Source: Candidatus Eiseniibacteriota bacterium
GTDB taxonomy: Bacteria; Eisenbacteria; RBG-16-71-46; SZUA-252
Length of the DNA: 52,983 bases
NCBI GenBank assembly: GCA_031397435.1
Contig: JANNMC010000404.1
Location: forward strand, 1-52,983
Direction: 5' to 3'
This document shows positions 1,079-51,778 of the stretch, piece by piece. The notes beneath the pieces were generated by a model. That model saw nothing but the letters and a program-made list of their open reading frames with translations. It was not told the DNA's origin and did not search any database. Each line of letters begins with the position of its first letter. The first letter of the stretch is position 1. The position numbers and the translations under genes were made by a program.

Positions 1079-1801
1079 TTAGGAGCGCGGGCGCCGTACC
1101 GCCAGAAGCCCGGCAAGACCACCGCCGATGAGCATCAGCATCCCTGGCTCGGGAGCCGAACCGCCACCGCCGCCAGTTCCGCCACCGCCACCAGACTCGC
1201 CACCACCCGTGTTGCCGGTAACGTCATGCGAGAAGGGGGCGAACGCACCGTGAAGCCTGTAATTGGCGCGTCCCACGGTGCCGGTGAAGTAGTGGTCGAA
1301 GGCGTCGAAGTGAACCTGATCGTAGCCGGTGACGTGCATCATGTACTTGTTGATCTGGCCGTACTTATTCGAATTCGGATTGGGAACGGATCCGGTCGTG
1401 TAGTCCTGGATCTGATCCGCCGTGCTCGTGAAATCGCCGATATCCCAGTAGATGTGACCATCGGCGTTCTTGAACTCTGCGTGATTCTGAACGCCCTGTG
1501 TAAAGCCGGGCTTCGACGCATAGTCCGGGTCGAGCGCCAAGCCAGGGGTAGGTGTGACCGTTCCCGAAGATCCGTAGAACGATGCGGCGAGGGTCACGTC
1601 GTAGATCGTGCCGTAGTCACCCACGGCGCCGATCACCCAGAGTTCGAACGTGTCGTCCTCGATCGTCCAGGTTTCGGAGGCCATGTCGTACGTCGCATCA
1701 GGGCTGTAGAGCTGCAGGGCGGGAATGGCGTGAGCCATCGGCGCGCAGAACAAAAGCGCCACCATCGATGCAAGAGCAAGATGTGAATTTCTTCGGATCA
1801 C
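1079..1801 (-). CDS. PEP-CTERM sorting-domain protein (putative exosortase substrate)
   Basis: 240 aa; GTG start preceded by GAGGAAA. Signal peptide MIRRNSHLALASMVALLFCAPMAHA, then Gly-rich linker GGGESGGGGGTGGGGGS. Canonical C-terminus follows: PEP, hydrophobic helix GMLMLIGGGLAGLLAV, basic tail RRPRS. The N-terminal domain is of unknown function. Confidence 0.9.
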   Translation of the reverse strand: MIRRNSHLALASMVALLFCAPMAHAIPALQLYSPDATYDMASETWTIEDDTFELWVIGAVGDYGTIYDVTLAASFYGSSGTVTPTPGLALDPDYASKPGFTQGVQNHAEFKNADGHIYWDIGDFTSTADQIQDYTTGSVPNPNSNKYGQINKYMMHVTGYDQVHFDAFDHYFTGTVGRANYRLHGAFAPFSHDVTGNTGGGESGGGGGTGGGGGSAPEPGMLMLIGGGLAGLLAVRRPRS

Positions 1802-2058: not shown

Positions 2059-3504
2059 CTACTCGGGCTTGGGCCCGGTGGATGAATCTCCGAGGTGGCT
2101 GGCCCGCTCGAGCAGCATGGAATAGCGCCTAGCCGCGAAATAGAGCAGCCTGACGTCTTCTCGGCGTGGACGTCGCCCATCGCGGCGGGGCCCGCAGAGG
2201 AGAAAGCCGATCATCTCCTCCTCGCCCCAGAGCGGCACCGCGACGCGCGCGTTGCAGGCGGCAATGGCCACCTTATTCTCGACATAGATCGAGACGTACT
2301 CGAGGTCGTCCGTGGGTCCCTGCAGTCGAATGGCGCGGCGTGCACGCCGCAACTCCATCGCCAGAGGGTCACGATCACCCACCTCTACACTCGGCGGTGG
2401 CGTCATGGTGCTCGACGCACATCGGAACTTCGCGCTCTTTCGGTCTGCGAGGAAGAGCGTGACGGATGCGAGGTCGGCGATTCCCAGCGCGTTCGCCGGG
2501 ATCGATCGACAGAGCTCCTCATAGTTGGTGCAGCCGTCTAGCGGGGCCACGGCGCGATTCGCCGCGACGCGAAAGGCCCCTCTCCAGTCTTGTAGAAGCG
2601 GAGCGAAGGCACGCTCCAGGCGGCGCCGCGCTCGGTTCGAGATCGCGACCGCCGTCGTGCCGAGGATCACACCACCCAACGCCACGAGCCAAAGGCCCCG
2701 GACGAAGCTGAAGCCCAGGGAGTGCGTCATCCATAGCAGCGTCGCCGTTCCCGCGAGAAACGCTGCGGCGAGCAGGAACGATGTCGTGGCCGTGACGGGA
2801 TGGACGGAGGGCGATAGCCGGGCTTCCCCCAGGCGTCCGCGAACGTAGGAGAGCGGCAAGAGGAGCGCGACCAATGCAACGGGCGCGGCCCCCAGCGTCA
2901 AGTCCGCGACGACGGCGCGGCCCGAAAGCAGCCCGCTCGCCGCCACCGCGGCGTAGAAGGCCGAGCAGACGATGGTGCCGAGTAGCGCCGGACGAAACGC
3001 GCGGCGATATCGACGCGGAAGCGAGAGATAGGTCGCCTCCAGACGGACGGTGTAGACCACGATGTTCGCGAGGATGATCCCGAGGATGACGCGATCCACC
3101 ACGCCGAGCGCGAGGGTGCCGCGAAGGTGCGTCGGCGCCGGCGGCGGCCCGAGCGCGAGCCACGCCGCGCTGGCGGCGGAGAGAATAGCCTGGAGGAACA
3201 GATACCCTCGCCATCCGGCGCCAAGGCGGGTGATCCGGGGGCGGCCGAGCGTCACCGCGGCCAGGACCCAGAGCAGGGTGACCGGGAGCGCGAGGGCCAT
3301 GGAGTAGCGGAACCAGAGTGCTTCCCCGCCCCACGGAACATCGAGCGCCACCCGCGCGAATCCGATTTGAAGGAGGCCCAGCAGCGCCACGCCCACGCCC
3401 GCGAGCAGCGCGGGGAGCCGCCCTGGCGCGAAGAGCACGATGAGTCCCCCCGACAAGGCGGCGAGAACTCCAGCCAGCGCGAGGATCAGGGCATCGGACG
3501 TCAT
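2059..3504 (-). CDS. multi-pass membrane protein with C-terminal GAF-like domain (PrsK-like sensor region, no kinase core)
   Basis: 481 aa. The first ~290 aa form about 8-9 hydrophobic helices. The last ~170 aa look GAF-like (...VAVPLWGEEEMIGFLLCGPRRDG...). The ATG overlaps the deacetylase stop (ATGA at 3501-3504). The architecture resembles the N-terminal two thirds of the PEP-CTERM system histidine kinase PrsK, but no H-box or ATPase motifs precede the stop. Confidence 0.5.
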   Translation of the reverse strand: MTSDALILALAGVLAALSGGLIVLFAPGRLPALLAGVGVALLGLLQIGFARVALDVPWGGEALWFRYSMALALPVTLLWVLAAVTLGRPRITRLGAGWRGYLFLQAILSAASAAWLALGPPPAPTHLRGTLALGVVDRVILGIILANIVVYTVRLEATYLSLPRRYRRAFRPALLGTIVCSAFYAAVAASGLLSGRAVVADLTLGAAPVALVALLLPLSYVRGRLGEARLSPSVHPVTATTSFLLAAAFLAGTATLLWMTHSLGFSFVRGLWLVALGGVILGTTAVAISNRARRRLERAFAPLLQDWRGAFRVAANRAVAPLDGCTNYEELCRSIPANALGIADLASVTLFLADRKSAKFRCASSTMTPPPSVEVGDRDPLAMELRRARRAIRLQGPTDDLEYVSIYVENKVAIAACNARVAVPLWGEEEMIGFLLCGPRRDGRRPRREDVRLLYFAARRYSMLLERASHLGDSSTGPKPE

Positions 3505-4421
3505 GACGATGTCACCGTGAGCAGACCCAATTCGCGAAGCCGATCGGCAACGGGCAGGAACCGGGCGCGCGCCACGATGCGGCGGAGGATCCTCTCCGTG
3601 GCGCCGAGCCGCGCGTAGTGCGTCCAGGGTCGCCGGGAGGGCCCCACGGTCGGTTGGCCCGGATCAAGCTCCCACGGATGAACGTTGACGACGAGAGGCG
3701 TGCCGGTCGCGGCATGCCGGTCGAGCGCGCCGAGGGAAAGCCAGGAGGGGAATAATCGCAGGTACGCCCCGGCGAGAACCGGCAGCCGCAGCGCCCCCAC
3801 GGAGAGCGTCGGGAGGGGGAACTCCGCGATCGTACCCTGCCCGGTCGAGATCAACGCCGGCACGCGAGGGCCCTCGGGATATCCGTAGCGGCGGCGACGG
3901 ATCGGATAGACGCTCGAGTCGTACGCGTATCCCGATTCCACGAGGATATCGAGCGCCCAGAGGGTCGATTTCCCGACGCTGTAGCTTGGCGCGCGATAGC
4001 CGAGGATCCGTTGTCCTGAGAGGTCCTCGAGAAGGGCCTTCGAGTCGATGGCCTGGGACCTAAATTCGGCAGGAGTCAACTCTGTGATCATGCGGTGATC
4101 GACGCCGTGCGATGCGACCTCGTGACCCCTGGCGGCGATCTCCCGGATAAGCGACGGTCGCTCCCGCGCCACGCAACCAAGGGTGAAGAAGGTTCCCCTG
4201 GCCCCCGCACCATCGAAGAGATCAAGGAGGCGATGCGTATTCGCCACCACGCGAGAGGGATATCGACCCCACGACTCGCGCGGCGCGTACGCCGCGAAGG
4301 CCTGAACCTGGAAATAGTCCTCCACATCCACGCTCAAGGCGAACGCGGGCTCGGTGCGGCGCGGCGCGACGGGCTTCTGTGGTGGGGCGTCGATCATGGT
4401 GGAGGCGCAAGCGCGCGCCAT
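3501..4421 (-). CDS. polysaccharide deacetylase, XrtA/PEP-CTERM-locus subfamily
   Basis: 306 aa. It has the N-terminal signature FALSVDVEDYFQVQAF and NodB-like features characteristic of the deacetylase family named for PEP-CTERM loci. Its position next to the exosortase region fits. Confidence 0.88.
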   Translation of the reverse strand: MARACASTMIDAPPQKPVAPRRTEPAFALSVDVEDYFQVQAFAAYAPRESWGRYPSRVVANTHRLLDLFDGAGARGTFFTLGCVARERPSLIREIAARGHEVASHGVDHRMITELTPAEFRSQAIDSKALLEDLSGQRILGYRAPSYSVGKSTLWALDILVESGYAYDSSVYPIRRRRYGYPEGPRVPALISTGQGTIAEFPLPTLSVGALRLPVLAGAYLRLFPSWLSLGALDRHAATGTPLVVNVHPWELDPGQPTVGPSRRPWTHYARLGATERILRRIVARARFLPVADRLRELGLLTVTSS

Positions 4422-4488: not shown

Positions 4489-5475
4489 CTACGGAATGAT
4501 CGCGAGTTGTGTCACGCTTCGGCCCGAGGGTGCGTCGACGATCACATTGTAGATGCCAGGTGCGACCGACTTCCCCGCATCGGAGCGGCAGGTCCAGTCG
4601 AGCGCCTGCTCCCCACTTGGGAGGATTCCGTCGAAGAGGGTGGTGATGCGATGCCCGGTGAGATCGTAGATCACGACCCGAACGCGGCCCGGCGCGCCAT
4701 CGGTGGTGCCTCCGCGAAATCGAATCGAGACACGGTCTCTCGCGGGATTCGGATAGCCGCGGACGGCGCTCGTGATCGTGGCAAGCCGATCGGACGGAAC
4801 CGTGGCCGTGGCCACGGCCGGCGGACTCTCGAGACCGTTCTGGTGTGTCGCGACGCGATATTCGTACGATTCCCCGCCGCGTACGGTGGTGTCCGTGAAC
4901 GCGGTCTGGACAACCGGCAGCGTCGCGAGCAGCGTGTCGGGGCTAGTGGAATCGCGACGATAGAGGCGATAGCCCTCACCCGCTCCCGCCGCCGGTTCAC
5001 TCCAGGCTAGCCGCACCCCTCCCGTCACGACCTGCGCCGTGAAGTCGCTCGGCGTGGCGAGCGCCCCGCCCGGCGTGCCGGCCTGCCGGACGGAGACATT
5101 GGAGTAGGCGGAACCATTCCCCGCGTCGTCGGTGCTGCGAAGCACGAAGTGGTAGGTGGCGCCGGTCGTCAGGCCGATCACCGTGAATCGTTCCCGGCTC
5201 CCCGCGGTGAGCGGTGGCGGGAGGACGCCCGCGGCCTGAGCGCCGTTCCACCATCCGGTTGTGTCACCGGAGGCGATCGGCGACGAGGCATAGCGCAACT
5301 CGTAGGAGGCGGCCCGTCCCGTTGTGCCGTCGTCGCCGGGCGCGGTCCACGTGAGATCGATTGTGTCCGCCACACCCCGTGACGGCGTGAAGGCCGCGAG
5401 CGCCAAGGCGCCCGCGACCATCCACGCCCGAGCGCGGGGCGTGCGAAGACTGTAGGGTCGGTTAGAAGGCGTCAT
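4489..5475 (-). CDS. exported Fn3-repeat protein with FlgD-Ig / T9SS-type-A-like C-terminal domain
   Basis: Track ORF 4489..5916 trimmed to ATG 5475 (MTPSNRPYSL...); the upstream part is Arg/Pro-rich and overlaps the previous gene. Signal peptide AWMVAGALALAAFTPSRGVA. Then an APGDDG-type Fn3-like repeat (DLTWTAPGDDGTTGRAASYELRY...WWNGA...YHFVL), a second ordinary Fn3, and a C-terminal domain GYPNPARDRVSIRF...VVIYDLTGHRI...VAPGIYNVIV...LAIIP. Confidence 0.8.
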   Translation of the reverse strand: MTPSNRPYSLRTPRARAWMVAGALALAAFTPSRGVADTIDLTWTAPGDDGTTGRAASYELRYASSPIASGDTTGWWNGAQAAGVLPPPLTAGSRERFTVIGLTTGATYHFVLRSTDDAGNGSAYSNVSVRQAGTPGGALATPSDFTAQVVTGGVRLAWSEPAAGAGEGYRLYRRDSTSPDTLLATLPVVQTAFTDTTVRGGESYEYRVATHQNGLESPPAVATATVPSDRLATITSAVRGYPNPARDRVSIRFRGGTTDGAPGRVRVVIYDLTGHRITTLFDGILPSGEQALDWTCRSDAGKSVAPGIYNVIVDAPSGRSVTQLAIIP

Positions 5476-6343
5476 GTCTTTCGGCCGCCGGAGACTCGCG
5501 GAAGTGCGTCGCCGCGCCACCCGCTGCTCCAGTCCCACCTCCAAAGGAGAGATCGCGCACCGCTGCCGGTGGAATCGTGTCGGCGGTGCTGGCGCTAGCG
5601 ACGTTCGAGAGCGCGGCGACGTTGCTTCGGTCGTCCGTTGCCCGCATGGCGACATAATAGATCTGGCTGCCCGCCAGGCCCGCGACGGTGAAGGTCTGCA
5701 CGGTCCCCGCGGCGGTCGGAACTGGCTCTCCGGTGACTGGAGTCGCGCTCGCCCAGTTTCCACTCGTGATGGCCGACGTGGAGTACCGAATGTCGTAGCT
5801 CGACGCCGTGCCGGTGCTGCCGTCGTCGCCCGGCGCGGTCCAGCGGAGCGACAGCGTCGTTCCCGTGGCGCCGGTGATGGTGAGGTCCGCGATCGCGGCA
5901 GGTGCCGTGACGTCACCCGACGTGGTCTTCAGGGCGACGTTCGAGTAACCCGCCCAGTTCGGGATTTCGTCTGCGGTCTTGATGATGAAGTAGTACGAGG
6001 TGAGCGGCTGGAGTCCCCTTACCCGGAGCGAGTCCGAAGCGCCCGATACGCCGGGAATCGGTTCCCCCGTGACGGCGGTGGCGCCGTTCCACCAGGTGAG
6101 CGTGTCCGTTCCCGCGACAGCGGTCGTGCGGTAGCGGAGGTCGTAGGTCGTGGCGCGCCCCGTCGTGCCGTCGTCGCCGGGAGCCGTCCAGTTCAAGACC
6201 ACGCTTGAATCGGCCGATGTCTGCGCGGTCGCCTCTCGTACCGACAAGGGTGAAACCGAAAGAGTCACGATCATGGCGGCGATCGCGAGTGGACTACGAA
6301 GGTCTTTTCGATTCAGACGGGAATTCGGTTGAAGCTCGAGCAT
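5462..6343 (-). CDS. exported protein with two APGDDG-type Fn3-like repeats (no C-terminal sorting-like domain)
   Basis: Start moved to ATG 6343 (MLELQPN...) because GGAGGA lies 6 nt upstream. Signal peptide ends ...SVREATAQ. Repeats are VLNWTAPGDDGTTGRATTYDLRY and LRWTAPGDDGSTGTASSYDIRY. The last 14 nt overlap the next gene start. Confidence 0.8.
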   Translation of the reverse strand: MLELQPNSRLNRKDLRSPLAIAAMIVTLSVSPLSVREATAQTSADSSVVLNWTAPGDDGTTGRATTYDLRYRTTAVAGTDTLTWWNGATAVTGEPIPGVSGASDSLRVRGLQPLTSYYFIIKTADEIPNWAGYSNVALKTTSGDVTAPAAIADLTITGATGTTLSLRWTAPGDDGSTGTASSYDIRYSTSAITSGNWASATPVTGEPVPTAAGTVQTFTVAGLAGSQIYYVAMRATDDRSNVAALSNVASASTADTIPPAAVRDLSFGGGTGAAGGAATHFRESPAAERHDAF

Positions 6344-6553
6344 GGGTGTCCTCCCCGCTTGCCGACGACTCGACGCCAACGACGCGACGAGCCGTCAGTG
6401 ACTCGTAGGTTCCATGGTGGCCCGGCCGGCATCGAGACGTGGCGCCACGGTGGCGCGCACGCTCGGAAGCCCCGAAACTCTGCGTCCCGTTCTTTCGTAC
6501 GGTTTGCTCTGATCATGGATGAAAGGCGTACCCCCCGGCCCGACCGTGAGACA

Positions 6554-6569
6554 AGCACGTTCGATGCCA
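6554..6569 (-). promoter_or_regulatory. sigma54 (-24/-12) promoter candidate
   Basis: Minus strand reads TGGCAT-CGAAC-GTGCT. The GG-N10-GC spacing is correct and 9 of 11 consensus positions (TGGCAC-N5-TTGCW) match. It lies ~210 nt upstream of ATG 6343 inside a 415-bp gap. Confidence 0.4.
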
Positions 6570-6758
6570 ATGCAAACGCTGACGATTTTGCAAAAGGGGC
6601 CGCGGAAAAGTCGTGAGTTACGCGCCAAACGTGCAGAGCGCCCGGCGGCATACGTGCTGCACGGGGACGGTTGCAGCGCCGTCGTCTGAAGATGCACGGG
6701 CAAGCGACGTGGAACGGCACCGCTGCGAAGCGAAGAATGGAGCGTGCTCCACAGATGA

Positions 6759-7643
6759 TTAGGCCGCACGACGCTTGTCGCCATCCTTACCGATAGGCGC
6801 GAGCGCCAACGACAGCGATCGCTCGGCGTCCCGCATCGAGAGATCGCGAACTGGAGAAGGCGCGATGGTGTCGGTGGTCGTGCCGCTCACGACGTTGGAG
6901 AGCGCTCCGACGTTGCCTCCGCCGTCCGAGGCGCGGATGGCGATGAAGTACGTTTGACTTCCTGAGAGTCCCGCCACGGTGAAAACCTGCTGCGTCCCCG
7001 AAACGGCGGGAGCTGGTTCGCCGGAGGCTTGCGTGGCAGATGCCCAGTTCACGGAGGTGATGGGGCTGGTCGAGTACCGGATGTCATAGCTGGACGCCGT
7101 GCCGGTGTTTCCGTCATTGCCAGGAGCGTTCCAGCGGAGCGAAATGGTGCTCGCCGCGGTGCCCGTTATGGCGAGCGTGGTGATGGCCGCCGGCGCGGTG
7201 TTGTCGCCAGTCGTCGTCTTCGTCGCGACGTTCGAGTATCCCGACCAGTTCGGAACTTCGTCCGCCGCACGGACGATGAAGTAGTAGGTCGTGAGCGGCG
7301 TAAGACCTCGCACCCGTGTGGAGTCAGTCGAGCCCGCGACGGCGGGCGCCGGCTCGCCGGTTACTTGGGTCGCGCCATTCCACCAGCTCAGCGTGTCCAC
7401 TCCTGAAATCGGTGTCGTACGGTAGCGAAGATCGTAGGAGGCTGCCCGTCCACTGTTGCCATCGTCCCCTGGGGCCGTCCAGAGGAGCACGACCGATGAG
7501 TCCGCCGATGTCTGCGCGAAGGCTAGGCCCGGGGATACCGCTGCTAGAACGAAGGCGACGACAAGAAGCAGGCGATGCGTGGGTCGGCGCGAAGCCGTTG
7601 GGTGGACCTTGGCGGAGTGCGGGAAACGCTGGCGAGCATGCAT
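6759..7643 (-). CDS. exported protein with two APGDDG-type Fn3-like repeats (tandem duplicate of 5462-6343)
   Basis: 294 aa; ATG 7643 preceded by GAGGAGGA. Signal peptide ends ...SPGLAFAQ. Repeats are VLLWTAPGDDGNSGRAASYDLRY and LRWNAPGNDGNTGTASSYDIRY. It aligns with 5462-6343 over its full length. Confidence 0.8.
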   Translation of the reverse strand: MHARQRFPHSAKVHPTASRRPTHRLLLVVAFVLAAVSPGLAFAQTSADSSVVLLWTAPGDDGNSGRAASYDLRYRTTPISGVDTLSWWNGATQVTGEPAPAVAGSTDSTRVRGLTPLTTYYFIVRAADEVPNWSGYSNVATKTTTGDNTAPAAITTLAITGTAASTISLRWNAPGNDGNTGTASSYDIRYSTSPITSVNWASATQASGEPAPAVSGTQQVFTVAGLSGSQTYFIAIRASDGGGNVGALSNVVSGTTTDTIAPSPVRDLSMRDAERSLSLALAPIGKDGDKRRAA

Positions 7644-7807
7644 GATGTTCCTCCTCGAGATGCGGCGCTGTACCTTGGCGGACGATTGCGTCCACCGCTG
7701 TCCCGTTTACCACACACCTGCACACTGGCCTCGCGGTCGAGACGCGCCCGATGGTGAGATGCCCACGATTGTTAGCAGGATCCCCTCCTGCCACACGCCG
7801 CAGGTGT

Positions 7808-7824
7808 TTGCAGGAATTGTGCCA
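7808..7824 (-). promoter_or_regulatory. sigma54 (-24/-12) promoter
   Basis: Minus strand reads TGGCAC-AATTC-CTGCAA, 10/11 matches to TGGCAC-N5-TTGCA with exact spacing. It lies in the 248-bp gap upstream of 6759-7643. Confidence 0.65.
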
Positions 7825-7891
7825 CGACATCATCTCTAACTCGTGCGGACTGCACGGTTGTGGAGCGATGGGGAGGAAATGTTGGGGATGG

Positions 7892-9430
7892 CTAGCGAGC
7901 GTCGTAGACGCTACGTAGCGAGCGACGAATAGCAGGAAGCATTTCAGCGCAGAAGTTCGCGAGAAGCCGTTCCGCGTCGCGCGGTTCGCGTGACGATGCG
8001 GTAAGTACGATCATCGCAGCGTGGTCGCGCCGTCCCAAGATGCGCGCGCGCGCCTGCAGAAACTTTGCCCGAATCGGATTGGTGGTGTATTCATCCGGGA
8101 TCCAGTACCAGTGCCATACGACCAACTGTTCGTCACGTGAGCGAAGCACCGTCTCCCGGAGCGTGAAGGCTGATCCTCCGTCCGCGACCTGCCGATCCAC
8201 CTCTCGGACCGTTCGCCACTCCGAGTCCTCCTCATGGACGATGCTGTTTCGTTCGCGCAGCAATTCCCTGCCCTGGGATTGATTCGCGTAGTACGCCATG
8301 TAGCACTGGACCGAGCCCTCGGTCGCTCCGTACGCCCTGTTCGACTCTGAAGTCGCGCCATGGAAGAGGGGGCGCCACATGCCGTGCGCCGCGGCCTCGA
8401 CCTTCCAAGCCCCGGACGGCGGCGGGGTGGCGACGGTCGCGATCGCTGGCTCCCCCTCGTGTGAAGCCGCGAAACGGTCGAAGGCCGGCCACGCCACCAC
8501 GGCGAGGAGGGCGAGGCCGGTGACAACGAGTCGCTGTCCGCCCGGGGCGGCCCTCGAGACGTCCGATTCCGGCTCCTCTCTCTCGCCAGGCGCCCCACTG
8601 GTTTCACGGTCTCGGAAGTGGGCGCCAAGCAGGAACCAGCCGCTCATGATGATGGTGAACACGAGCCAGCCGTAGAAGTAGTGATCGAACCCCTGCCCCC
8701 GGCGCATCTCCGTCAGATGTCCGATCAGGATGAGCACGTAGGCCCGGACTCCGTTGGCGAAGATGGAGACGGCGATAGCGGAAACGACAAAGAGCGCCCG
8801 TTTCAAGATGGACCGGTACGTGAGGAAAGCGAAGAGCGTGGCCAGGACGGCGCCCGCGACGGTGAAACGCAATCCGCTGCACGACTCGAGAATCTGCCAT
8901 CGCGAGTTCGGAAGGATGATAAAGAGCCCTTCCCGGGCTACCGTGAGCCCGCTCCAGCGAAGTGCCTGCTCCGCGAAGTCGGCCGTGATGACCATGAGCG
9001 TCGGTTGGAGAAAATCGCCGAACGGCACCGAGAAGAAGAGAAACGCGAGCGGAAACGCGAGCCGGTGCGTCGCCCGCCAGCCGAAGTGCGCCACGACGAG
9101 AACCGGGATCATCGCAACGAAGCTAAGCTGCTCGAGAAGCAATGTGCTGGCGGCGCGGCCCACGAGCCAGGCGAAACCGATGGGGATCAGCGCGAGGAGT
9201 GCGAGCGGCGTGGGATGGGGCCGAAGCGTCGCCAGGGAGGCGCGGGACCTCCAGGCGAGGTAGACACAAGCCGGAGCGACAAAGAAACCGTATACGAAGG
9301 TGTCGGAGTGGCTCCAGATGTTGACGAGCGACGCGATTGTCGTGCCGTACGCGAGGAGCGTGGCGAGGAGCGTGAACGCGAAGGCAAGGAGCGCCCCTTT
9401 CCAGGCGCGCGGGGGAACGTCCAGGTTCAC
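7892..9430 (-). CDS. xrtA: exosortase A (XrtA/EpsH1-type) fused to a C-terminal EpsI-family domain
   Basis: Track ORF 7892..9784 has an Arg-rich N-terminus overlapping the upstream gene. I start it at GTG 9430 (VNLDVPPRAWKGALLAFAF...), which overlaps the upstream TAG by 1 nt (TAGTG). It is multi-TM with exosortase motifs ILESCSGLRF (Cys), ANGVRAY (Arg) and LIGHL (His). The C-terminal ~190 aa (...VVWHWYWIPDEYTTNPIRAKFLQARARILG...) look like EpsI. The neighbourhood carries the named exosortase-A-associated marker genes. Confidence 0.85.
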   Translation of the reverse strand: MNLDVPPRAWKGALLAFAFTLLATLLAYGTTIASLVNIWSHSDTFVYGFFVAPACVYLAWRSRASLATLRPHPTPLALLALIPIGFAWLVGRAASTLLLEQLSFVAMIPVLVVAHFGWRATHRLAFPLAFLFFSVPFGDFLQPTLMVITADFAEQALRWSGLTVAREGLFIILPNSRWQILESCSGLRFTVAGAVLATLFAFLTYRSILKRALFVVSAIAVSIFANGVRAYVLILIGHLTEMRRGQGFDHYFYGWLVFTIIMSGWFLLGAHFRDRETSGAPGEREEPESDVSRAAPGGQRLVVTGLALLAVVAWPAFDRFAASHEGEPAIATVATPPPSGAWKVEAAAHGMWRPLFHGATSESNRAYGATEGSVQCYMAYYANQSQGRELLRERNSIVHEEDSEWRTVREVDRQVADGGSAFTLRETVLRSRDEQLVVWHWYWIPDEYTTNPIRAKFLQARARILGRRDHAAMIVLTASSREPRDAERLLANFCAEMLPAIRRSLRSVYDAR

Positions 9431-10458
9431 TACGGGAGAAGGACCAGGCGTTCGCGTACCCGCGTGCTCCCGATGCTGCCCAGGAGTTCGTAGTAGCCCG
9501 GGGCAACCTGTTGCCCGCCACGTCCTGCCCGATTCCACGTCACTTCGGATAACCCTCGCGGGTAGGTGCCGTCCACTACCGTTGCAACCCAGCGGCCCGT
9601 CATGTCGAAAAGCCGTACGTCGACGGCCATGGAGGTGCTCGACTGAACGTCCACGACGATCGTGACGGGACCGTTCGCTGGATTGGGATAGACGTGGAGA
9701 TTTGAGACGCTGGTCGAAGCGGCCGGCGGCGGTATCGTTCCGGGCAAGGTCACCGTCCTCGTGGCCGTGGACGGCCCCTCGCATGTGGGCCCCATGTACG
9801 CGGCGCGATAGCGGTATGTCGTTCCTGGGGAAACGGAGGTGTCCAGGAACGAGGTCGTGCCGACCGAGAGGTTCTGGATCTCACTCCAGGGGCCTGTCAT
9901 TCCAAGCGCTCGGTAAAGGTGGAGCGAGGTGGCAAGCGGATCGCTGGTCGTACCCCAGGACAACGATACCTGCCCCGTATCCGCCACGGCGTCGAAAAGG
10001 TTGGGTGCGTCCGCGGGAGCGCTGCACGGCTGGGTCGTGCCCGAAGCGACGTTGGAGAAGTCGGAGATATTGAGACTCTCGTCCAGCGCTCGAAGAATGA
10101 AATAGAACGTGGTCCCGGGCGTCAAGCCAGTGACCTTCGTGGAATCGGCGGCTCCGGCCGGCGCGAGAGGGGGGCCCAGCGTCAGCCGCTGGGAAAAAGG
10201 AACGGCGTTATCCCACCACGTGGTCATGTCGGATCCCACGGGTGTTGTACTGTAGCGAAGTTGGTAGCTGCTGACCTGTCCCTGATTGCCGTCGTCTCCC
10301 GGGGCCACCCACAGCACCGTCAGGCTATTCGCCGGCGTCGCCTGGGCATGCGCGGGAGGTGCAGCGACGAGTAGCGCTAGCATGCAAATGGCAAGCGCAC
10401 AGGCGACTCTCGCCGCCCGGACGACTCGCGGCAATCCGTTCCTGAACCGCAGGCTCAT
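9430..10458 (-). CDS. exported Fn3-repeat protein with FlgD-Ig / T9SS-type-A-like C-terminal domain
   Basis: 342 aa; ATG preceded by GGAGG. Signal peptide ends ...LLVAAPPAHAQ. APGDDG-type repeat (LTVLWVAPGDDGNQGQVSSYQLRY...WWDNA...FYFIL), second Fn3 (VSLSWGTTSD...YRYRAAY), and C-terminal VYPNPANGPVTIVV...RLFDMTGRWV...VAPGYYELL...LVLLP. Same architecture as 4489-5475. Confidence 0.8.
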   Translation of the reverse strand: MSLRFRNGLPRVVRAARVACALAICMLALLVAAPPAHAQATPANSLTVLWVAPGDDGNQGQVSSYQLRYSTTPVGSDMTTWWDNAVPFSQRLTLGPPLAPAGAADSTKVTGLTPGTTFYFILRALDESLNISDFSNVASGTTQPCSAPADAPNLFDAVADTGQVSLSWGTTSDPLATSLHLYRALGMTGPWSEIQNLSVGTTSFLDTSVSPGTTYRYRAAYMGPTCEGPSTATRTVTLPGTIPPPAASTSVSNLHVYPNPANGPVTIVVDVQSSTSMAVDVRLFDMTGRWVATVVDGTYPRGLSEVTWNRAGRGGQQVAPGYYELLGSIGSTRVRERLVLLP

Positions 10459-10878: not shown

Positions 10879-12360
10879 ATGTCCCCCCTCCTGACCCCGG
10901 CAGGCCTCGATACGAGAAGGTCTGCCTTGGCGCACTCCGCCATCGCGGGAGCGCTGCTCCTCTACGCCGCGATGGGTCCAGGGATGGCCAACGCGCGAAC
11001 CTATGTCGCGAATCCGCAGGCAACCTCCGGGCAGGCGGGTTACTACCAGACGCTTCGGAATTCGTTGGTCCCTGGCGATACTCTCTACCTCCCAGCCGGC
11101 TTCTATGCGGAGCGGCTCAATCTCGATGGTCTGAATGGCACCCCTTCGGCCTGGATCGTCATCACGGGTCCCGAGTCGGGCCCGCCGGCCACGATCACGA
11201 CGACGTCAACCTGCTGCAACACGGTGCAGCTCGGCGGTACGTCCTACGTCGTGCTCCGGAACATCACTGTCGACAGCGCCGGTCTGGACGCCATCGACGG
11301 TATCAACGCGAAAGGCAATCCGACCCACGACATCGTGATCGAGAACTGCACCCTGATCGGGCAGGACAACAGCCAAGGTACCATCGGAATCTCCACAAAA
11401 TCGCCGGCCTGGCGCTGGACCATTCGCGGCAATCGCATCATCCATGCGGGGACTGGCGTCTACCTCGGGAACTCGGACGGAACACAGCCCTTCGTCTCGG
11501 GGATCATCGAAGGCAACCTGTTCTTGAACTCCATCGGGTACAACATGGAGATCAAGAATCAGCTCGCCTATGGGGCTCAGGCGTGGGCCTCTCAGCTCCC
11601 GCCTGATCCCCATAGGACGATCATTCGGAACAACGTCTTCATCAAGGAGAAGAATGACTGGGCGCCGGGACAAGTGGTGGGGGCGAGGCCCAATCTACTC
11701 GTCGATCCATTCCCCGATACCGGAACCGGAAGTGCCGATCTCTATGAGATCTACGGCAACTTCTTCTACAAGAACCCCAACGAAGTCCTGCTCCAGGCGA
11801 CGGGGCGGATGACCGTTCACGACAATGTATTCGTGGCCTCCTCCGGAGGCCGCGCGGCGGCTCTCTTCACGGACCACAACGGACCGCTAAAGCTCGCGCA
11901 CGTCTACAACAATTCCGTCTTCAGCGCGGCCGGCGGTGGATTCCATTTCTCCGTGGCGCCTCGCGAGGGAGGAATTGTGCGCGGAAATCTGATCGTGACC
12001 GCTGGGAGCGCGCTGAGTGGGGCGGTACCGACGGCGGGCGGCAATCTCGTCGGTACTCCCTCGGACGGGAAGACCTACTTCACGGCTCCTTCGGAATCCC
12101 TAGGGCAAATGGATTTCTACCCCGCGGTTTCGTGCGTGGGATGCAGCGGGACTCCCCTCGATCTGACCCCCTTTGCCGGGAACACGGGCTTCACGCTCGA
12201 CTTCAATGGCGCATCCAAGGGGGACTTTCGGTTCCGTGGTGCCTACGCCGGGGAAGGTGCGAATCCGGGGTGGCGGCTGCAAGCAGTCCTGAAGCCACAG
12301 GGGTTCATCGGCTCCGATACACTCCCTCCGGGTCCACCGATCAACCTGCGCACTCCCTGA
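10879..12360 (+). CDS. secreted right-handed parallel beta-helix protein (polysaccharide lyase/hydrolase/epimerase-like)
   Basis: The track ORF starts at 10510, but its first 123 codons are Arg/His-rich. I start at ATG 10879 (MSPLLTPAGLDTRRSALAHSAIAGALLLYAAMGPGMANA, a signal peptide). Repeated beta-helix-type segments follow: NITVDSAGLDAIDGINAKGNPTHDIVIENCTLIG, IRGNRIIHAGTGVYLGNSDG, GNLFLNS. Confidence 0.7.
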   Translation: MSPLLTPAGLDTRRSALAHSAIAGALLLYAAMGPGMANARTYVANPQATSGQAGYYQTLRNSLVPGDTLYLPAGFYAERLNLDGLNGTPSAWIVITGPESGPPATITTTSTCCNTVQLGGTSYVVLRNITVDSAGLDAIDGINAKGNPTHDIVIENCTLIGQDNSQGTIGISTKSPAWRWTIRGNRIIHAGTGVYLGNSDGTQPFVSGIIEGNLFLNSIGYNMEIKNQLAYGAQAWASQLPPDPHRTIIRNNVFIKEKNDWAPGQVVGARPNLLVDPFPDTGTGSADLYEIYGNFFYKNPNEVLLQATGRMTVHDNVFVASSGGRAAALFTDHNGPLKLAHVYNNSVFSAAGGGFHFSVAPREGGIVRGNLIVTAGSALSGAVPTAGGNLVGTPSDGKTYFTAPSESLGQMDFYPAVSCVGCSGTPLDLTPFAGNTGFTLDFNGASKGDFRFRGAYAGEGANPGWRLQAVLKPQGFIGSDTLPPGPPINLRTP

Positions 12361-13642
12361 TCCTTCCGCCCTCCGGCTCCGGGTCCGGCTCGGGCTCTGG
12401 TTGTGAGAGCGCCCAGGCCTCCCGGTGTGCGAGCGCCTTCAGAATGATCGTGGCGGCGACCAGGTGATAGTAGAGATCGAAGTTCGCTCGTCCCAGAAAC
12501 GCACCGCTCGCCATGTAACCGATCAACGCGATCTGAAGCATGTTCGCGTAGCTGGCGACCCACTTCAATTCCGGCCACCGGCCATAGCGGCGGCTAAGCC
12601 CCTGAAGGCTCACGATCGACGACACGAGAATGGTCAAGAAGAGGCCGAGCCCCAAGAAGCCTTGTTCCCCCAGCATCTCGAAGTAAATGCTGTGCGCGGC
12701 ATGAAAGTCGGTGGGATCGGGGGCGTACCGAAGGAATAGATCAGGCGAGAAGGTGTTAAAGCCGCCGCCGAGGATACGGTCGGACGCGACATTGAAGGCG
12801 AACCACCACGCATTGATCCGCCCCAGCGCCGATTCGTCGTCCATGTCGCCGATGGTCATCATTCGGTCCAGCCACTGACCGGGCATTAGAGAAAAGCCGC
12901 CGACGGCCACGACCAGGAACACGATCATCGCCAGAGCCTTCCTCTTCGACTTCAAGAGTGCCCAGCCCGAGACGGCCGCGAGCCCGACGAATCCCCCGCG
13001 CGAGTAGGTGAAGATGACGGATATCGCGGAAAGCGCGCCGGCGGCGCGAAGTCCCCACCGCAGCCATCCGCGCGCCTCATCCCGGGCCAGATAGAAGAGG
13101 ATCGGTAGGACCATGACGGTGGCCAGGGCCAAGTCGTTGTTGTCCTCCAGGAATGACCCCGGGGGCCCGTAAATGCGATCGGTTCCACCGCCTCGTAGGC
13201 TGAAGATCCCGCCTTTGACGCCGAAAAAGCCCACGGAGAGAGCGATCACGAGGAGGAACATCCGGAATCGGTCCCGTGACGTGATGAGAGCCATGGTGGT
13301 GGCGGTCATCAGGAGTATCTTCGAAACCTGCTGGAAGCGATCCCACGCAGCCGCCGGGTAGAACGCGAAACTCGTCGTGACGATGAAGAGGACATAGAGG
13401 GCAATCAGCAGGATTGTCTCGCGCTCGAACGGGATCTTCACGCGATCCTTGGTGAACATGAGTCCGAGCAGCGTAGCGGCGCCGATGGCCATCGCGGCTG
13501 GGAAGTTGTAGGCGATGCCCCAGGTGAGCCGGTGGGGATTCATGTAGCTGATCCAGCACCAGTAGAGGACGCCGAGGAACGGCCGGAAGATGGCGATCGG
13601 AACTCCGGCGAGGATGATGGCCAGCACGAGATAGTCGCGCAT
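12341..13642 (-). CDS. putative O-glycosylation ligase / O-antigen-ligase-like protein, exosortase A system-associated
   Basis: 433 aa, ~10 TM; start preceded by GAGGAG. The N-terminus MRDYLVLAIILAGVPIAIFRPFLGVLYWCWISYMNPHRL and a Wzy_C-like core match my memory of the family of that name. It has a C-terminal EPEPEPDPEPE tail. Confidence 0.82.
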   Translation of the reverse strand: MRDYLVLAIILAGVPIAIFRPFLGVLYWCWISYMNPHRLTWGIAYNFPAAMAIGAATLLGLMFTKDRVKIPFERETILLIALYVLFIVTTSFAFYPAAAWDRFQQVSKILLMTATTMALITSRDRFRMFLLVIALSVGFFGVKGGIFSLRGGGTDRIYGPPGSFLEDNNDLALATVMVLPILFYLARDEARGWLRWGLRAAGALSAISVIFTYSRGGFVGLAAVSGWALLKSKRKALAMIVFLVVAVGGFSLMPGQWLDRMMTIGDMDDESALGRINAWWFAFNVASDRILGGGFNTFSPDLFLRYAPDPTDFHAAHSIYFEMLGEQGFLGLGLFLTILVSSIVSLQGLSRRYGRWPELKWVASYANMLQIALIGYMASGAFLGRANFDLYYHLVAATIILKALAHREAWALSQPEPEPDPEPEGGRIRECAG

Positions 13643-22251: not shown

Positions 22252-22357
22252 GGATTCATGAACGAATCAGCCTAGATTTGGATGCCCCGAAAGTCCATTG
22301 GAAAGTTCCCGCAGGCTCGCACCTGGGGGCACCTGGATCGCCCCGCGGAGGTGCGGC

Positions 22358-24944: not shown

Positions 24945-25157
24945 CGTGTGGTCTCCTTGTGCCGCGGTAGAACTCGTGGGATCCGGCTTGCGGCCGCCGC
25001 GGCACGGGGCATCGTCGAAAATGCCGGAGCATGCGCGGCGCGATTTTCGATAGAATAGGCGCTTTCCCGGCACCGGCGGTAACGGTTATTTCCCGAACCG
25101 ATTGCCCCGGACTCCTGGGGCGCGCCCCCCATCCCGTATCGAGGAACGAAACCGACT

Positions 25158-38663: not shown

Positions 38664-38666
38664 GAA

Positions 38667-39668: not shown

Positions 39669-39704
39669 AGCAGGTGCGACGCTTGGTGCGAACGCAAAAT
39701 CTGG

Positions 39705-47684: not shown

Positions 47685-47713
47685 AAACCTTCCTCTTTAT
47701 AGGGACTTACAGG

Positions 47714-51404: not shown

Positions 51405-51418
51405 GGCCGGAGTGGAAC

Positions 51419-51434
51419 TGCAATCTCCGTGCCT
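51419..51434 (-). promoter_or_regulatory. sigma54 (-24/-12) promoter for the GGDEF gene
   Basis: Minus strand reads AGGCACG-GAGA-TTGCA, 11/12 to TGGCACG-N4-TTGCA with exact spacing. It lies in the 39-bp gap upstream of the cyclase start. Confidence 0.6.
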
Positions 51435-51443
51435 TGGCGCGGG

Positions 51444-51701: not shown

Positions 51702-51778
51702 TGGTGCGCCCGAAGGGATTCGAACCCCTGGCCTTCTGCTCCGGAGGCAGACGCTCTATCCAGCTGAGCTACGGGCGC
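51702..51778 (-). tRNA. tRNA-Arg: tRNA-Arg (anticodon CCG), CCA encoded
   Basis: The reverse complement folds as a cloverleaf. Acceptor stem GCGCCCG/CGGGCGC; D arm GCTC-AGCTGGATA-GAGC; anticodon stem TCTGC/GCAGA with loop CTCCGGA; variable loop AGGCC; T arm AGGGG-TTCGAAT-CCCTT; 3' ACCA. Confidence 0.9.

Follow-up and report, generated by a model that had tools for sequence, protein, structure and literature searches.

Why should an exosortase A (XrtA)-EpsI fusion sit among four genes for exported Fn3-repeat proteins, none of which carries a PEP-CTERM signal? An earlier note on this DNA offered two answers: the Fn3 proteins either serve this exosortase system as its own set of matrix/scaffold partners or are a second class of XrtA cargo that uses a different C-terminal signal. 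We followed up both ideas in the window, meaning the whole analyzed stretch of 52,983 nucleotides. The window, from a Candidatus Eisenbacteria bacterium in the FCB group, is an exopolysaccharide (EPS) locus of the XrtA type. Four paralogous minus-strand genes, here termed A, B, C, and D, flank the fusion, and their reading frames are where the earlier note had placed them (Table 1). All four have signal peptides, and their products are Sec-exported proteins with WTAPGDDG-type Fn3 domains in common.

Table 1. Features of the XrtA locus discussed in the text (positions within the window)
Feature	Positions	Strand	Description
PEP-CTERM protein	1079..1801	-	Choice-of-anchor N
Polytopic membrane protein	2059..3504	-	481 aa; weak PrsK sensor-region likeness; TIGR02916 30.7 bits (cutoff 300)
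XrtA-system polysaccharide deacetylase	3501..4421	-	TIGR03006 289.6 bits (cutoff 276)
Gene D	4489..5475	-	328 aa; signal peptide, strand-A-less Fn3, ordinary Fn3, T9SS-type C-terminal domain (CTD)
CTD of D	4492..4770	-	7-strand sandwich, residues 239-326 (AF2 model); profile
Gene C	5462..6343	-	293 aa; tandem duplicate of B; copy behind riboswitch
Orphan strand-A tag of C	5543..5587	-	TADTIPPAAVRDLSF; strand-A alignment
c-di-GMP-I (GEMM-I) riboswitch aptamer	6413..6518	-	69 nt upstream of C ATG; RF01051
Gene B	6759..7643	-	294 aa; signal peptide AFA|Q; strand-A-less Fn3, complete Fn3, orphan strand-A tag, variable tail
Orphan strand-A tag of B	6837..6878	-	TTDTIAPSPVRDLS; invariant D, P, L, S; HMM positions 1-16 of complete domain
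xrtA-epsI fusion	7892..9430	-	512 aa; GTG start; TIGR03109 + TIGR02914
Gene A	9430..10458	-	342 aa; signal peptide AHA|Q; strand-A-less WVAPGDDG Fn3, ordinary Fn3, T9SS-type CTD
CTD of A	9433..9705	-	YPNPA...APGYY...LVLLP; HMM, profile
Secreted right-handed beta-helix protein	10879..12360	+	493 aa; divergent from A; ends in orphan strand-A tag
C-terminal tag of beta-helix protein	12313..12357	+	SDTLPPGPPINLRTP-stop

This is a full XrtA EPS locus, with XrtA-associated genes (TIGR03109, TIGR02914, TIGR03006, TIGR03097, TIGR03098, TIGR03099, and TIGR03108) together with a PEP-CTERM substrate. TIGR03006, TIGR03097, TIGR03098, and TIGR03108 exceeded their cutoffs, and TIGR03099 scored 448.8, slightly under its cutoff of 478. 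The fusion is a true exosortase A-EpsI protein, with 280.4 bits against TIGR03109 (cutoff 208), 130 bits against TIGR02914 (cutoff 42.8), and an exosortase-type Cys within ILESCSGLRF. Its match to XrtW stayed under the cutoff (246.6 bits, cutoff 425). A regex scan of all ORFs in the window and HMMs found one PEP-CTERM protein, the presumed genuine substrate of XrtA here. None of the four Fn3 proteins gave a PF07589 or TIGR02595 match, and they lack PEP-CTERM, as had been noted from the letters.

About 25 Candidatus Eisenbacteria loci, with identities as low as 47%, share the order A-xrtA-B(-C)-D-XrtA-type deacetylase. Thus, the adjacency of A to D with xrtA is not due to chance. B-D-deacetylase was kept at all D-ortholog loci whose contig reaches that far, with the deacetylase always directly downstream of D. 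In related loci, the polytopic membrane protein, in which we found no kinase domain, is conserved downstream of the deacetylase. Of the 20 loci that cover the slot between A and B, 17 have an exosortase there; in L092, L100, and L011, the Fn3 set is present and the slot has no exosortase. The earlier note had named scattered paralogs away from xrtA, together with a complete T9SS elsewhere, as a sign of coincidence. Weaker paralogs of 30-35% identity do occur elsewhere without xrtA (L013-L019), but the orthologs are strictly linked. These data define A/B/C/D as a lineage-specific conserved module of the XrtA locus, A-xrtA/epsI-(riboswitch)-B(-C)-D-deacetylase.

The TAG stop of A does overlap the GTG start of xrtA by 1 nt (TAGTG), and this overlap was kept in L001-L003 and L008; in five loci, translation of xrtA is coupled to that of A. 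Likewise, the 3' end of C and the start of D share 14 nt. Translational coupling, claimed for the whole set, holds for these two junctions but not for xrtA to B, with a gap of 248 nt, or for B to C, with a gap of 415 nt that contains a riboswitch. The aptamer matched RF01051 at 43.6 bits (gathering score 35) over model positions 1-87 of 87. The GGC variant model RF03167 scored about equally (43.1 bits), under its cutoff of 59. Control by c-di-GMP-I riboswitches is typical of biofilm-matrix genes.

Besides the window, 17 further loci have the riboswitch, always on the same strand and upstream of a B-like gene. The score of the L096 ortholog reached 56.3 bits. All 19 copies lie on the same strand upstream of Fn3 genes, in the 5'-UTR position. 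Compensatory changes were seen in 14 of 31 pairs, and none of 500 shuffles attained the covariation score; the real structure paired in 90.8% of cells versus 28-39% for slid controls. A c-di-GMP-I riboswitch, its ligand being predicted, precedes a tandem-Fn3 gene that is translationally coupled to D. The conserved synteny, the exosortase slot, and the riboswitch support the idea that the Fn3 proteins are scaffold or matrix partners dedicated to the exosortase/EPS system.

The four proteins matched Pfam fn3 (PF00041) at 27.6, 53.8, 55.4, and 47.1 bits (cutoff 25), in agreement with the Fn3 nature first read from their repeats. The motif W-x-A-P-G-D-D-G...Y-x-L-R-Y...WW...F showed little or no variation across 30 B-type and 32 D/A-type homologs. 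As described before, B and C are tandem duplicates (59% identical) with two repeats apiece, and A and D run from repeat to ordinary Fn3 to a C-terminal domain of about 90 aa. The best PDB matches of AF2 models of B and D were tandem FnIII domains (E of 1e-8 to 1e-10).

The C-terminal domain had been likened to FlgD-Ig and T9SS type A domains, and the comparison proved sound at the family level. As single sequences, A and D fell slightly under the curated cutoffs for T9SS type A CTDs (TIGR04183/PF18962): A scored 24.4 against Por_Secre_tail (cutoff 27) and 21.4 against TIGR04183 (cutoff 23), and D scored 17.8 (cutoff 27) and 20.4 (cutoff 23), all near misses. The single-sequence FlgD_ig match was 23.2 (cutoff 27). 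Across the family, FlgD_ig matched 29 of 32 members and Por_Secre_tail matched 25 of 32. A profile of the domain matched the PorU CTD (E = 7.7e-8), FlgD (5e-5), PorZ (8e-4), and the RgpB CTD (0.09) in the PDB. The last domain of A and D is a homolog of the T9SS CTDs. Like T9SS type A cargo and the PorU and PorZ CTDs, it lies at the extreme C terminus, spans about 90 aa, forms a 7-strand Ig-like sandwich, starts with YPNP, and has G-x-Y; the organism is likewise in the FCB group. The usual end of T9SS type A cargo is basic/hydrophobic, whereas the A/D family ends in an invariant Pro (AIVP/VLLP). NCBI names one D ortholog "T9SS type A sorting domain-containing protein." No T9SS genes were found in the 53-kb window, and our literature search found no paper on Eisenbacteria and T9SS.

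A CTD of the T9SS/FlgD-Ig type indicates an export route other than XrtA. This speaks against a second class of XrtA cargo recognized through the A/D domain, as do the PEP-CTERM substrate that the locus has of its own and the Fn3 sets that persist with no exosortase in the slot. Nothing suggests that XrtA processes the Fn3 proteins.

Like the riboswitch, two protein features had escaped the earlier note: strand-A-less N-terminal domains and orphan strand-A tags. In every family member, the first Fn3 domain, directly after the signal peptide, has no strand A. When the complete second domain is used as an HMM, its match to the first domain of B does not begin until position 18. In AF2 models of B and D, the first domain begins at strand B, while later domains keep strand A. 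Strand B of the first domain starts 7-12 residues past the predicted signal-peptidase site in A, B, C, and D. Mature A to D start at strand B, and strand A is thus missing, which leaves an Ig-like fold minus one edge strand, as expected of a strand acceptor. This trait is common to all WTAPGDDG-type Fn3 proteins.

At the other end, after their last domain, B and C have the very sequence of an Fn3 strand A, and no domain follows it. The tag T-x-D-T-(V/I)-(A/P)-P-A-P-V-R-D-L-S varies little or not at all among 30 B-type proteins, in contrast to the freely varying 25 or so residues behind it. It matches strand-A positions 1-16 of the domain HMM. Placed before an acceptor N terminus, it restores the A-B segment in sequence to within one residue; such a conserved extension, matching the missing strand in sequence, is what a donor should carry. 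The tag also ends unrelated enzymes: the beta-helix protein and, in related loci, Kelch and PcRGLX-like proteins. It is these orphan tags, rather than the CTD, that stand out as the unusual C-terminal signal of the locus.

Strict C-terminal tags numbered 20 among 6615 ORFs, with 0.13-0.14 expected by composition and 3.0 expected if internal strand-A motifs were placed randomly. In 74 of 82 tagged beta-helix homologs, the stop came exactly 3 residues past (D/N)(L/V); elsewhere in this enzyme family, the same C-terminal slot holds a MYXO-CTERM or TM anchor. A strand-A-less Fn3 gene, nearly always CTD-ending, followed within 900 nt after 25 of 34 tag-ending Fn3 genes. Outside Eisenbacteria, a tag-ending gene followed by a strand-A-less gene was found in L066, L128, and L069. 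In three loci without Eisenbacteria ancestry, tagged enzymes have a strand-A-less Fn3 protein as a neighbor, directly adjacent in L079 and L088 and about 6.5 kb away in L086. The layout of L032 is that of L079 and L088, with an acceptor that, by eye, may retain a strand-A-like segment. Within 10 kb of the tagged beta-helix homologs of L169, L170, and L087, no strand-A-less Fn3 was found; the L169 gene is directly upstream of xrtA-epsI.

These sequences suggest, as a proposed mechanism, that A to D and the neighboring enzymes join by lending one missing beta-strand. The orphan strand of one subunit would insert into the open first domain of another. A and D, with an acceptor and a CTD, would serve as bases anchored to the cell. 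B and C, with acceptor and donor, would be extenders that chain head to tail, and the tagged enzymes, which are donors only, would be docked cargo or tips acting on polysaccharide. The Fn3 proteins would form the protein scaffold of a c-di-GMP-induced matrix, while XrtA, working in parallel, would handle its own PEP-CTERM substrate and leave them unprocessed. Against this docking model, the tag is disordered in the AF2 monomer model of B, a tail of about 25 aa follows the tag in B and C, and the strand-A-less first domain might be a stable 6-strand variant. The L032 acceptor may still have a strand-A-like segment, and tags with no strand-A-less Fn3 nearby (L169, L170, and L087) imply that the tag partner could be something else. 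The single-sequence CTD scores under the curated cutoffs also count against it.

It is possible, if rather unlikely, that A to D are Fn3 proteins of an ordinary matrix or adhesin kind, free of strand docking and placed together with the EPS genes under common c-di-GMP control. A and D would then be plain surface T9SS cargo, and B and C would be soluble, RbmA-like polysaccharide-binding matrix proteins. The motif would be a conserved linker, the remnant of a lost domain, or another signal (proteolysis or quality control). The generic tandem-Fn3 fold, the homology of the CTD to T9SS CTDs, the conserved riboswitch, and the family-wide lack of strand A in the first domain all fit such proteins, and the Vibrio cholerae rbm cluster gives a precedent for matrix-protein genes inside an EPS locus. 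However, this leaves unaccounted for a motif conserved like a domain core with variable residues behind it, unrelated enzymes that stop exactly 3 residues past it, a tag enrichment of 20 versus 0.13, and strand-A-less genes that come so regularly after tag-ending genes.

We think it improbable that the exosortase system recognizes the tag, or the entire Fn3 proteins, through the periplasmic EpsI domain or another conserved EPS-export component. In that modified form of the earlier cargo idea, they would be XrtA-dependent proteins of a second class, one without PEP-CTERM. No function or solved structure is known for EpsI, XrtA-type EPS loci of several phyla typically include tagged beta-helix enzymes, A is coupled to xrtA, and the tagged enzyme of L169 adjoins xrtA-epsI with no Fn3 gene nearby. 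But L032, L079, L066, and L128 pair tags with strand-A-less Fn3 partners and have no exosortase within 10 kb, and three Fn3 sets (L011, L092, and L100) lack the slot exosortase. The tag has neither the TM helix nor the basic tail of every known exosortase signal, and its sequence is exactly that of the strand which the Fn3 acceptors lack. Least credible by far is that a large, scattered Fn3-plus-CTD family happens to adjoin xrtA in this genome. The distant paralogs without xrtA and the wide spread of the WTAPGDDG Fn3 type would fit, but synteny already contradicts it: B-D-deacetylase is kept across the ortholog loci, and the slot exosortase, TAGTG overlap, and riboswitch are conserved.

Strand docking has precedents. 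In type V pili, the donor strand is C-terminal and the missing strand is N-terminal. Donor-strand assemblies (chaperone-usher, Bacteroidota type V, and CPR Pam pili) use an Ig-like subunit minus an edge strand, filled by the terminal extension of another subunit, and comprise acceptor-only, acceptor-plus-donor, and anchor subunits, as proposed here. The Pam pili of CPR bacteria are treated in bioRxiv 10.64898/2026.03.03.709456. The present proteins differ in that the fold is a canonical Fn3 missing strand A, the open state would come from signal-peptide cleavage alone, and the anchors bear T9SS-type CTDs. Neither the window nor the related loci showed a gene for a chaperone, usher, or processing protease. 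Donors here include large enzymes (beta-helix and Kelch), more like enzyme docking than a pilus. Cohesin-dockerin pairs of cellulosomes likewise join diverse enzymes with a short C-terminal module to a repeated beta-sandwich scaffold and a cell-surface anchor. There the module is a folded Ca-binding domain and two folded domains are joined, whereas here a single-strand tag of about 14 residues would complete a fold.

RbmA of Vibrio cholerae is a secreted tandem-FnIII matrix protein whose c-di-GMP-induced rbm cluster lies between the vps EPS clusters. It is also described in bioRxiv 10.64898/2026.03.03.709456. Like the proteins studied here, it is tandem FnIII, encoded in an EPS locus, and linked to c-di-GMP. 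We found no sequence relationship, and RbmA was absent from the top 50 structural matches of the AF2 models. RbmA differs in having no orphan-strand tag, exosortase, or CTD, and its regulation is transcriptional (VpsR/VpsT), with no riboswitch. The described organization of XrtA/PEP-CTERM loci has no Fn3 insertion, riboswitch, or CTDs, and we found no paper linking these to XrtA loci.

Taken together, we regard it as an even call, judged from sequence, that A to D are the scaffold of a c-di-GMP-induced matrix assembled by strand complementation, with XrtA acting in parallel. In these bacteria, a CTD-anchored scaffold would then carry the EPS enzymes.

The earlier note had described four paralogous minus-strand genes for exported Fn3 proteins around the exosortase gene xrtA, and these genes, here called A to D, are real. 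All four proteins passed the Pfam fn3 model. Their shared repeat forms an Fn3 subtype of its own, W-(T/V)-A-P-G-D-D-G ... Y-x-L-R-Y ... W-W ... Y-(Y/F)-F (the WTAPGDDG subtype), whose signature residues were invariant or nearly invariant among 30 B-type and 32 D/A-type homologs. B and C share 59% identity and carry two such domains apiece; A and D have one WTAPGDDG-subtype Fn3, one ordinary Fn3, and a C-terminal domain (CTD) of ~90 amino acids.

Coordinates of the features discussed in the text, counted along the window
Feature	Position	Strand	Details
A, Fn3 protein	9430-10458	−	342 aa
B, Fn3 protein	6759-7643	−	294 aa
C, Fn3 protein	5462-6343	−	293 aa
D, Fn3 protein	4489-5475	−	328 aa
Exosortase A fused to EpsI	7892-9430	−	Between A and B; GTG start; TIGR03109, 280 bits (cutoff 208); TIGR02914, 130 bits (cutoff 42.8)
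c-di-GMP-I aptamer (predicted)	6413-6518	−	In the 415-nt B-C gap, upstream of C; RF01051, 43.6 bits (gathering score 35), full-length
Secreted right-handed beta-helix protein (NosD/Beta_helix-like)	10879-12360	+	C terminus ...SDTLPPGPPINLRTP-stop, a tag
XrtA-system deacetylase	3501-4421		TIGR03006
O-antigen-ligase-like/Wzy_C protein	12341-13642	−	TIGR03097
Wzm/Wzt ABC-transporter pair	37395-39704	−	
Poly_export (Wza-like) protein	46707-47696	−	
PEP-CTERM protein, choice-of-anchor N family	1079-1801		
Asparagine-synthase-type amidotransferase	20317-22266	−	
Asparagine-synthase-type amidotransferase	25083-27083	+	
Polytopic membrane protein	2059-3504	−	481 aa
GAF-GGDEF diguanylate cyclase	50277-51443	−	
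tRNA gene	51705-51778	−	

The CTD of D was modeled as a seven-strand sandwich (AF2 model of D; mean pLDDT, 80.8). As single sequences, A and D fell a few bits short of the curated cutoffs of Por_Secre_tail, TIGR04183, and FlgD_ig. Across the CTD family, FlgD_ig matched 29/32 members and Por_Secre_tail matched 25/32, and a CTD profile run against the PDB retrieved the C-terminal domain of PorU (E = 7.7e-8), FlgD (5e-5), PorZ (8e-4), and the RgpB CTD (0.09). The family-level HMM matches and the PorU match, at the extreme C terminus, bear out the likeness to FlgD-Ig and T9SS sorting domains claimed in the earlier note. By homology, we assign this part of A and D as a T9SS-type/FlgD-Ig-type CTD. 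Fold searches with the models of B and D returned only generic eukaryotic tandem FnIII proteins and were uninformative on function.

The window has a G+C content of 61 to 69%, and its first ~50 kb form a single large exopolysaccharide (EPS) locus. Besides the exosortase fusion, the deacetylase, and the O-antigen-ligase-like protein, the locus encodes the XrtA markers decarboxylase (TIGR03099), acyl-CoA ligase (TIGR03098), ACP, and amidotransferase (TIGR03108), together with a TIGR03088-like glycosyltransferase and sugar-nucleotide enzymes. Since the Wzm/Wzt pair, the Wzy_C/ligase-like protein, and the Poly_export protein are encoded in one locus, parts of two polysaccharide export routes lie side by side. 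One of the two amidotransferases is the full XrtA/PEP-CTERM system enzyme (TIGR03108, 1049 bits); the other copy has diverged and aligns with TIGR03108 only from model residue ~105 (285 bits, below the cutoff). The polytopic membrane protein lies directly downstream of the deacetylase in all related loci. It has no kinase domain and resembles only the sensor part of the histidine kinase PrsK (TIGR02916, 30.7 bits versus 300).

Homologs of B and D were named mostly from Candidatus Eisenbacteria (FCB group), and the few other labels are probably binning errors. Every D-ortholog locus with sufficient contig (~25 loci, 47 to 91% identity) had the order B-like gene, D, XrtA-type deacetylase. Of the 20 loci covering the slot between A and B, 17 had an exosortase there and three (L011, L092, and L100) had none (numbers with “L” denote fetched comparison loci). 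The one-base TAGTG overlap of A with xrtA was found again in L001 to L003 and L008, and overlap of the B-like gene with D is also recurrent. The B/C duplication is confined to the lineage of the window (the window and L001 to L003). Distant Eisenbacteria paralogs (30 to 35% identity) occur elsewhere without xrtA, and the WTAPGDDG Fn3 type itself is widespread. Because gene order and the exosortase in its slot are conserved among orthologs, for these the adjacency is not the coincidence that the earlier note had allowed for.

A c-di-GMP-I riboswitch was predicted in the gap between B and C. The GGC-variant model scored about equally to RF01051, yet below its own cutoff, and these near-equal scores make the ligand specificity uncertain. 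A covariance model built from the copies in the window and L004 was run on related loci and recovered the element from another 17. In these it is found on the coding strand a short way ahead of the tandem-Fn3 gene, except in L105 and L120, where it precedes an Fn3-plus-CTD paralog. In the riboswitch structure, 90.8% of cells were paired compared to 28 to 39% in slid controls; 14 of 31 pairs had changed on both sides, and 0 of 500 shuffles attained the observed covariation score. This conserved placement suggests an ancestral layout of xrtA, riboswitch, B, D, and deacetylase. Of the two copies in the window, C lies behind the riboswitch and has a good Shine-Dalgarno sequence before its ATG at 6343. 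Even with filters off, no riboswitch was found before window gene B or in the closest relatives (L001 to L003), in which it was either lost or has diverged past detection. The predicted riboswitch would tie the Fn3 genes to c-di-GMP signaling, as expected of biofilm-matrix components. The GAF-GGDEF cyclase at the edge of the EPS locus, which a tRNA gene adjoins, is a possible source of the ligand.

Taken together, we regard three findings as new and solid: the Fn3 module conserved in Eisenbacteria, the homology of the CTD, and the riboswitch. The earlier note had left two interpretations side by side, and they fared differently. Synteny and the riboswitch support a dedicated scaffold partner set of this exosortase system. 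The other interpretation, a second class of XrtA cargo using the C-terminal domain of A and D, finds no support, given the T9SS-type character of this domain and the presence in the locus of a PEP-CTERM substrate for XrtA itself. This substrate is, as the note had said, the only one in the window; scanning all window ORFs uncovered no other PEP-CTERM-type tail.

All four proteins have a first Fn3 domain without strand A. The predicted signal-peptidase sites (A-x-A↓Q-T-S-A-D-S-S in B and C, A-H-A↓Q in A, and V-A↓D in D) leave only 7 to 12 residues before the conserved strand-B Trp. An HMM of the complete second B-family domain fits the first domain only from position 18, so that positions 1 to 17 (strand A and the turn) have no counterpart. 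In the AF2 models, strand B opens the first domain and strand A is present in later domains. Such an open first domain is shared by the WTAPGDDG Fn3 subtype as a whole. We considered the end of the signal peptide as a cleavable strand A in the style of type V pili and rejected it, since the conserved P-x-x-A-x-A↓Q reads as the usual c-region of a signal-peptidase I substrate. In A, B, and C, cleavage by signal peptidase I at the predicted site (A-x-A↓Q; near 10344, 7514, and 6223) would expose an N-terminal Gln. This Gln is invariant in the B family and recalls the “Q-rule” of pyroglutamate N termini in Bacteroidetes, which does not hold for the whole FCB group (PMC5837995).

Past their last domain, B and C carry the segment T-x-D-T-(V/I)-(A/P)-P-A-P-V-R-D-L-S, which aligns to strand-A positions 1 to 16 of the HMM and is disordered in the AF2 monomer model. 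Across 30 sequences, conservation of this orphan strand (the “tag”) equals that of the domain core, and its D, P, L, and S never vary. Joined in sequence, the tag and the mature N terminus of an open domain (the “acceptor”) restore, to within one residue, the stretch that runs in a complete domain from strand A through the turn to strand B. In B and C, the tag is followed by a freely varying tail of ~25 residues (6759-6836 and 5462-5542, respectively), which in the B family often ends in a semiconserved E-R-H-(A/D)-S-like sequence; in other lineages (L066, L067, L128, and L166), the tag stands at the very C terminus.

Neighboring enzymes outside the Fn3 family close with this tag at their extreme C terminus. 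The window's beta-helix protein, for which no NCBIfam match was found, shares its tagged C terminus with its orthologs, and the Kelch-type and PcRGLX-like proteins encoded divergently upstream of xrtA in related loci are likewise tagged. For a census, we took ORFs of ≥100 aa in all frames from 168 loci and the window. A strict regular expression identified 20 tag C termini among 6,615 ORFs, all 20 in real genes. Shuffling or reversing the sequences gave an expectation of 0.13 to 0.14, and random placement of genuine internal strand-A motifs relative to stops one of 3.0. XrtA-type EPS loci of several phyla often include a member of the beta-helix family. Among 120 beta-helix homologs (~50% identity, several phyla), at least 81 have the tag after a flexible Gly/Ser/Pro linker, and the stop falls exactly three residues after (D/N)(L/V) in 74 of 82 tagged members. 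A minority have MYXO-CTERM or another membrane/TM anchor in this slot, which implies that the tag occupies the position of an anchoring signal. A Rosetta-stone search of the 120 homologs found a full WTAPGDDG Fn3 substituting for the tag in 0/120; the only replacements were other anchors, namely MYXO-CTERM, TM anchors, and a different beta-sandwich beginning DTTPP. We rejected the tag as an N-glycosylation sequon because the Ser or Thr of a sequon is missing from most tags, which read NLRAP or DLRxR.

Over all loci fetched, WTAPGDDG-Fn3 proteins fell into three recurrent architectures, each starting with a signal peptide and an open Fn3: those ending in the CTD (n = 58), in a tag plus tail (n = 26), or in a terminal tag (n = 7). 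An open-Fn3 gene, almost always CTD-ending, lies within 900 nt downstream on the same strand for 25 of 34 tag-ending genes. In L066, outside Eisenbacteria, a protein ending ...PDQTPPDAITNLQASTP-stop is followed by one with a canonical T9SS CTD ending ...KMVLLK, and L128 and L069, also non-Eisenbacteria, have the same order of tag gene and open-Fn3 gene. Two low-GC MAG loci labeled “uncultured Gammaproteobacteria” (L032, 4393-11461; L079, 1591-11746) encode three consecutive secreted enzymes, each ending in a Cys-rich module plus tag (e.g., ADTTPPATVTNLTAE-stop); next comes a membrane-anchored protein that combines a WTAPGDDG Fn3 with FG-GAP repeats and with the Cys-rich module of the enzymes. 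Strand A is clearly missing from the L079 acceptor; in that of L032, a strand-A-like segment (KVLAADVFAT) may be kept. No exosortase was found near these tagged enzymes. L088 (7021-11392) comes from another lineage and is likewise an EPS locus of the XrtA type; in it, three tagged enzymes (Kelch-like, a 431-aa protein, and a beta-helix protein) directly follow a lipoprotein of 160 aa with a strand-A-less Fn3 of a different subtype (SWEAPTTNDDGTPLADLAGYKVYYG). In L086 (Lentisalinibacter), a lipoprotein with an apparently open Fn3 is encoded 6.5 kb from a tagged beta-helix gene. In a Zixibacteria protein (L061, 9746-10525), a strand-A-less WTAPGDDG Fn3 is followed by an apparent dockerin-type repeat pair (DCSADGSVDILDL ... 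IDINDLTMFIDYLF), which hints that the subtype is combined with other docking modules. A one-to-one pairing of A with the beta-helix enzyme was dropped; numbers were too small and the pattern was inconsistent, A occurring with Kelch in L009, L092, and L107.

The most economical reading of these sequences, and a well-motivated one, is donor-strand complementation, in which the tag of one protein would insert into the strand-A-less first Fn3 of a partner; we give such docking a little under an even chance. Complementation within a single B or C molecule is sterically excluded, because no linker separates strand G of domain 2 from the tag and the domain 1 groove has its opening at the far pole. 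A and D (acceptor and CTD) would then be anchored bases, B and C (acceptor and donor) chainable extenders, and the donor-only beta-helix, Kelch, and PcRGLX-like enzymes docked cargo, together building a c-di-GMP-induced surface scaffold. Speculatively, and with a T9SS hypothetical here, partners exported by Sec only might cross the outer membrane through the T9SS by way of the CTD on the base subunit.

Two observations speak against donor-strand complementation: the tag is disordered in the monomer model, and the open first domain is found throughout the Fn3 subtype. A third is that three loci with tagged beta-helix genes had no open Fn3 within 10 kb, so that the tag could alternatively be recognized by a receptor in the EPS or exosortase machinery, e.g., EpsI. 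One of them, L169 (10001-13051, another lineage), is the main observation keeping an exosortase- or EpsI-linked role alive, as its tagged beta-helix gene lies directly upstream of an xrtA-epsI fusion. A PDB search with the EpsI domain found no solved structure. Donor-strand complementation, extended to the tag/acceptor pairs found in uncultured lineages (Zixibacteria-like and others) and in the XrtA-type EPS loci that other phyla carry, would amount to a new split-Fn3 docking and polymerization system. Its tag of ~14 residues, D-T-x-P-P-x-x-(V/P)-x-(N/D)-L-x-x-COOH, would, given this spread, rank as a general signal for anchoring, comparable to PEP-CTERM or MYXO-CTERM. We propose this whole reading tentatively and think it somewhat likelier to fail than to hold.

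Chaperone-usher pili, type V pili, and the recently reported CPR Pam pili (bioRxiv 10.64898/2026.03.03.709456) are based on donor-strand exchange. They are among the closest known mechanisms, although insertion in our case is inferred from sequence; T9SS CTD cargo (for A and D) and RbmA-type FnIII matrix proteins within an EPS locus are also close, and cohesin-dockerin docking is alike by analogy of function. As opposed to these systems, the window combines canonical Fn3 domains lacking strand A with a C-terminal tag of ~14 residues that enzymes carry too, no chaperone, usher, or protease was seen, and XrtA, T9SS-type CTDs, and a c-di-GMP riboswitch are joined in one unit. We found no literature describing the combined XrtA, T9SS-type CTD, riboswitch, and split-Fn3 arrangement, and nothing relevant on Eisenbacteria and T9SS, exosortase and Fn3, or exosortase and c-di-GMP riboswitch.

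Regardless of docking, this exosortase EPS locus has matrix-protein genes linked to a predicted c-di-GMP riboswitch, and it encodes an XrtA system and T9SS-type cargo as one unit; we found no earlier description of either. If the docking model is true, the tag would be a new C-terminal anchoring signal recognizable from sequence, and tag and acceptor could be adapted as a tool for protein ligation. Bacterial surface scaffolds would then be built by a new route, the completion of an Fn3 fold, and this would account for the retention of periplasmic or secreted EPS-modifying enzymes at the surface in uncultured FCB-group phyla.
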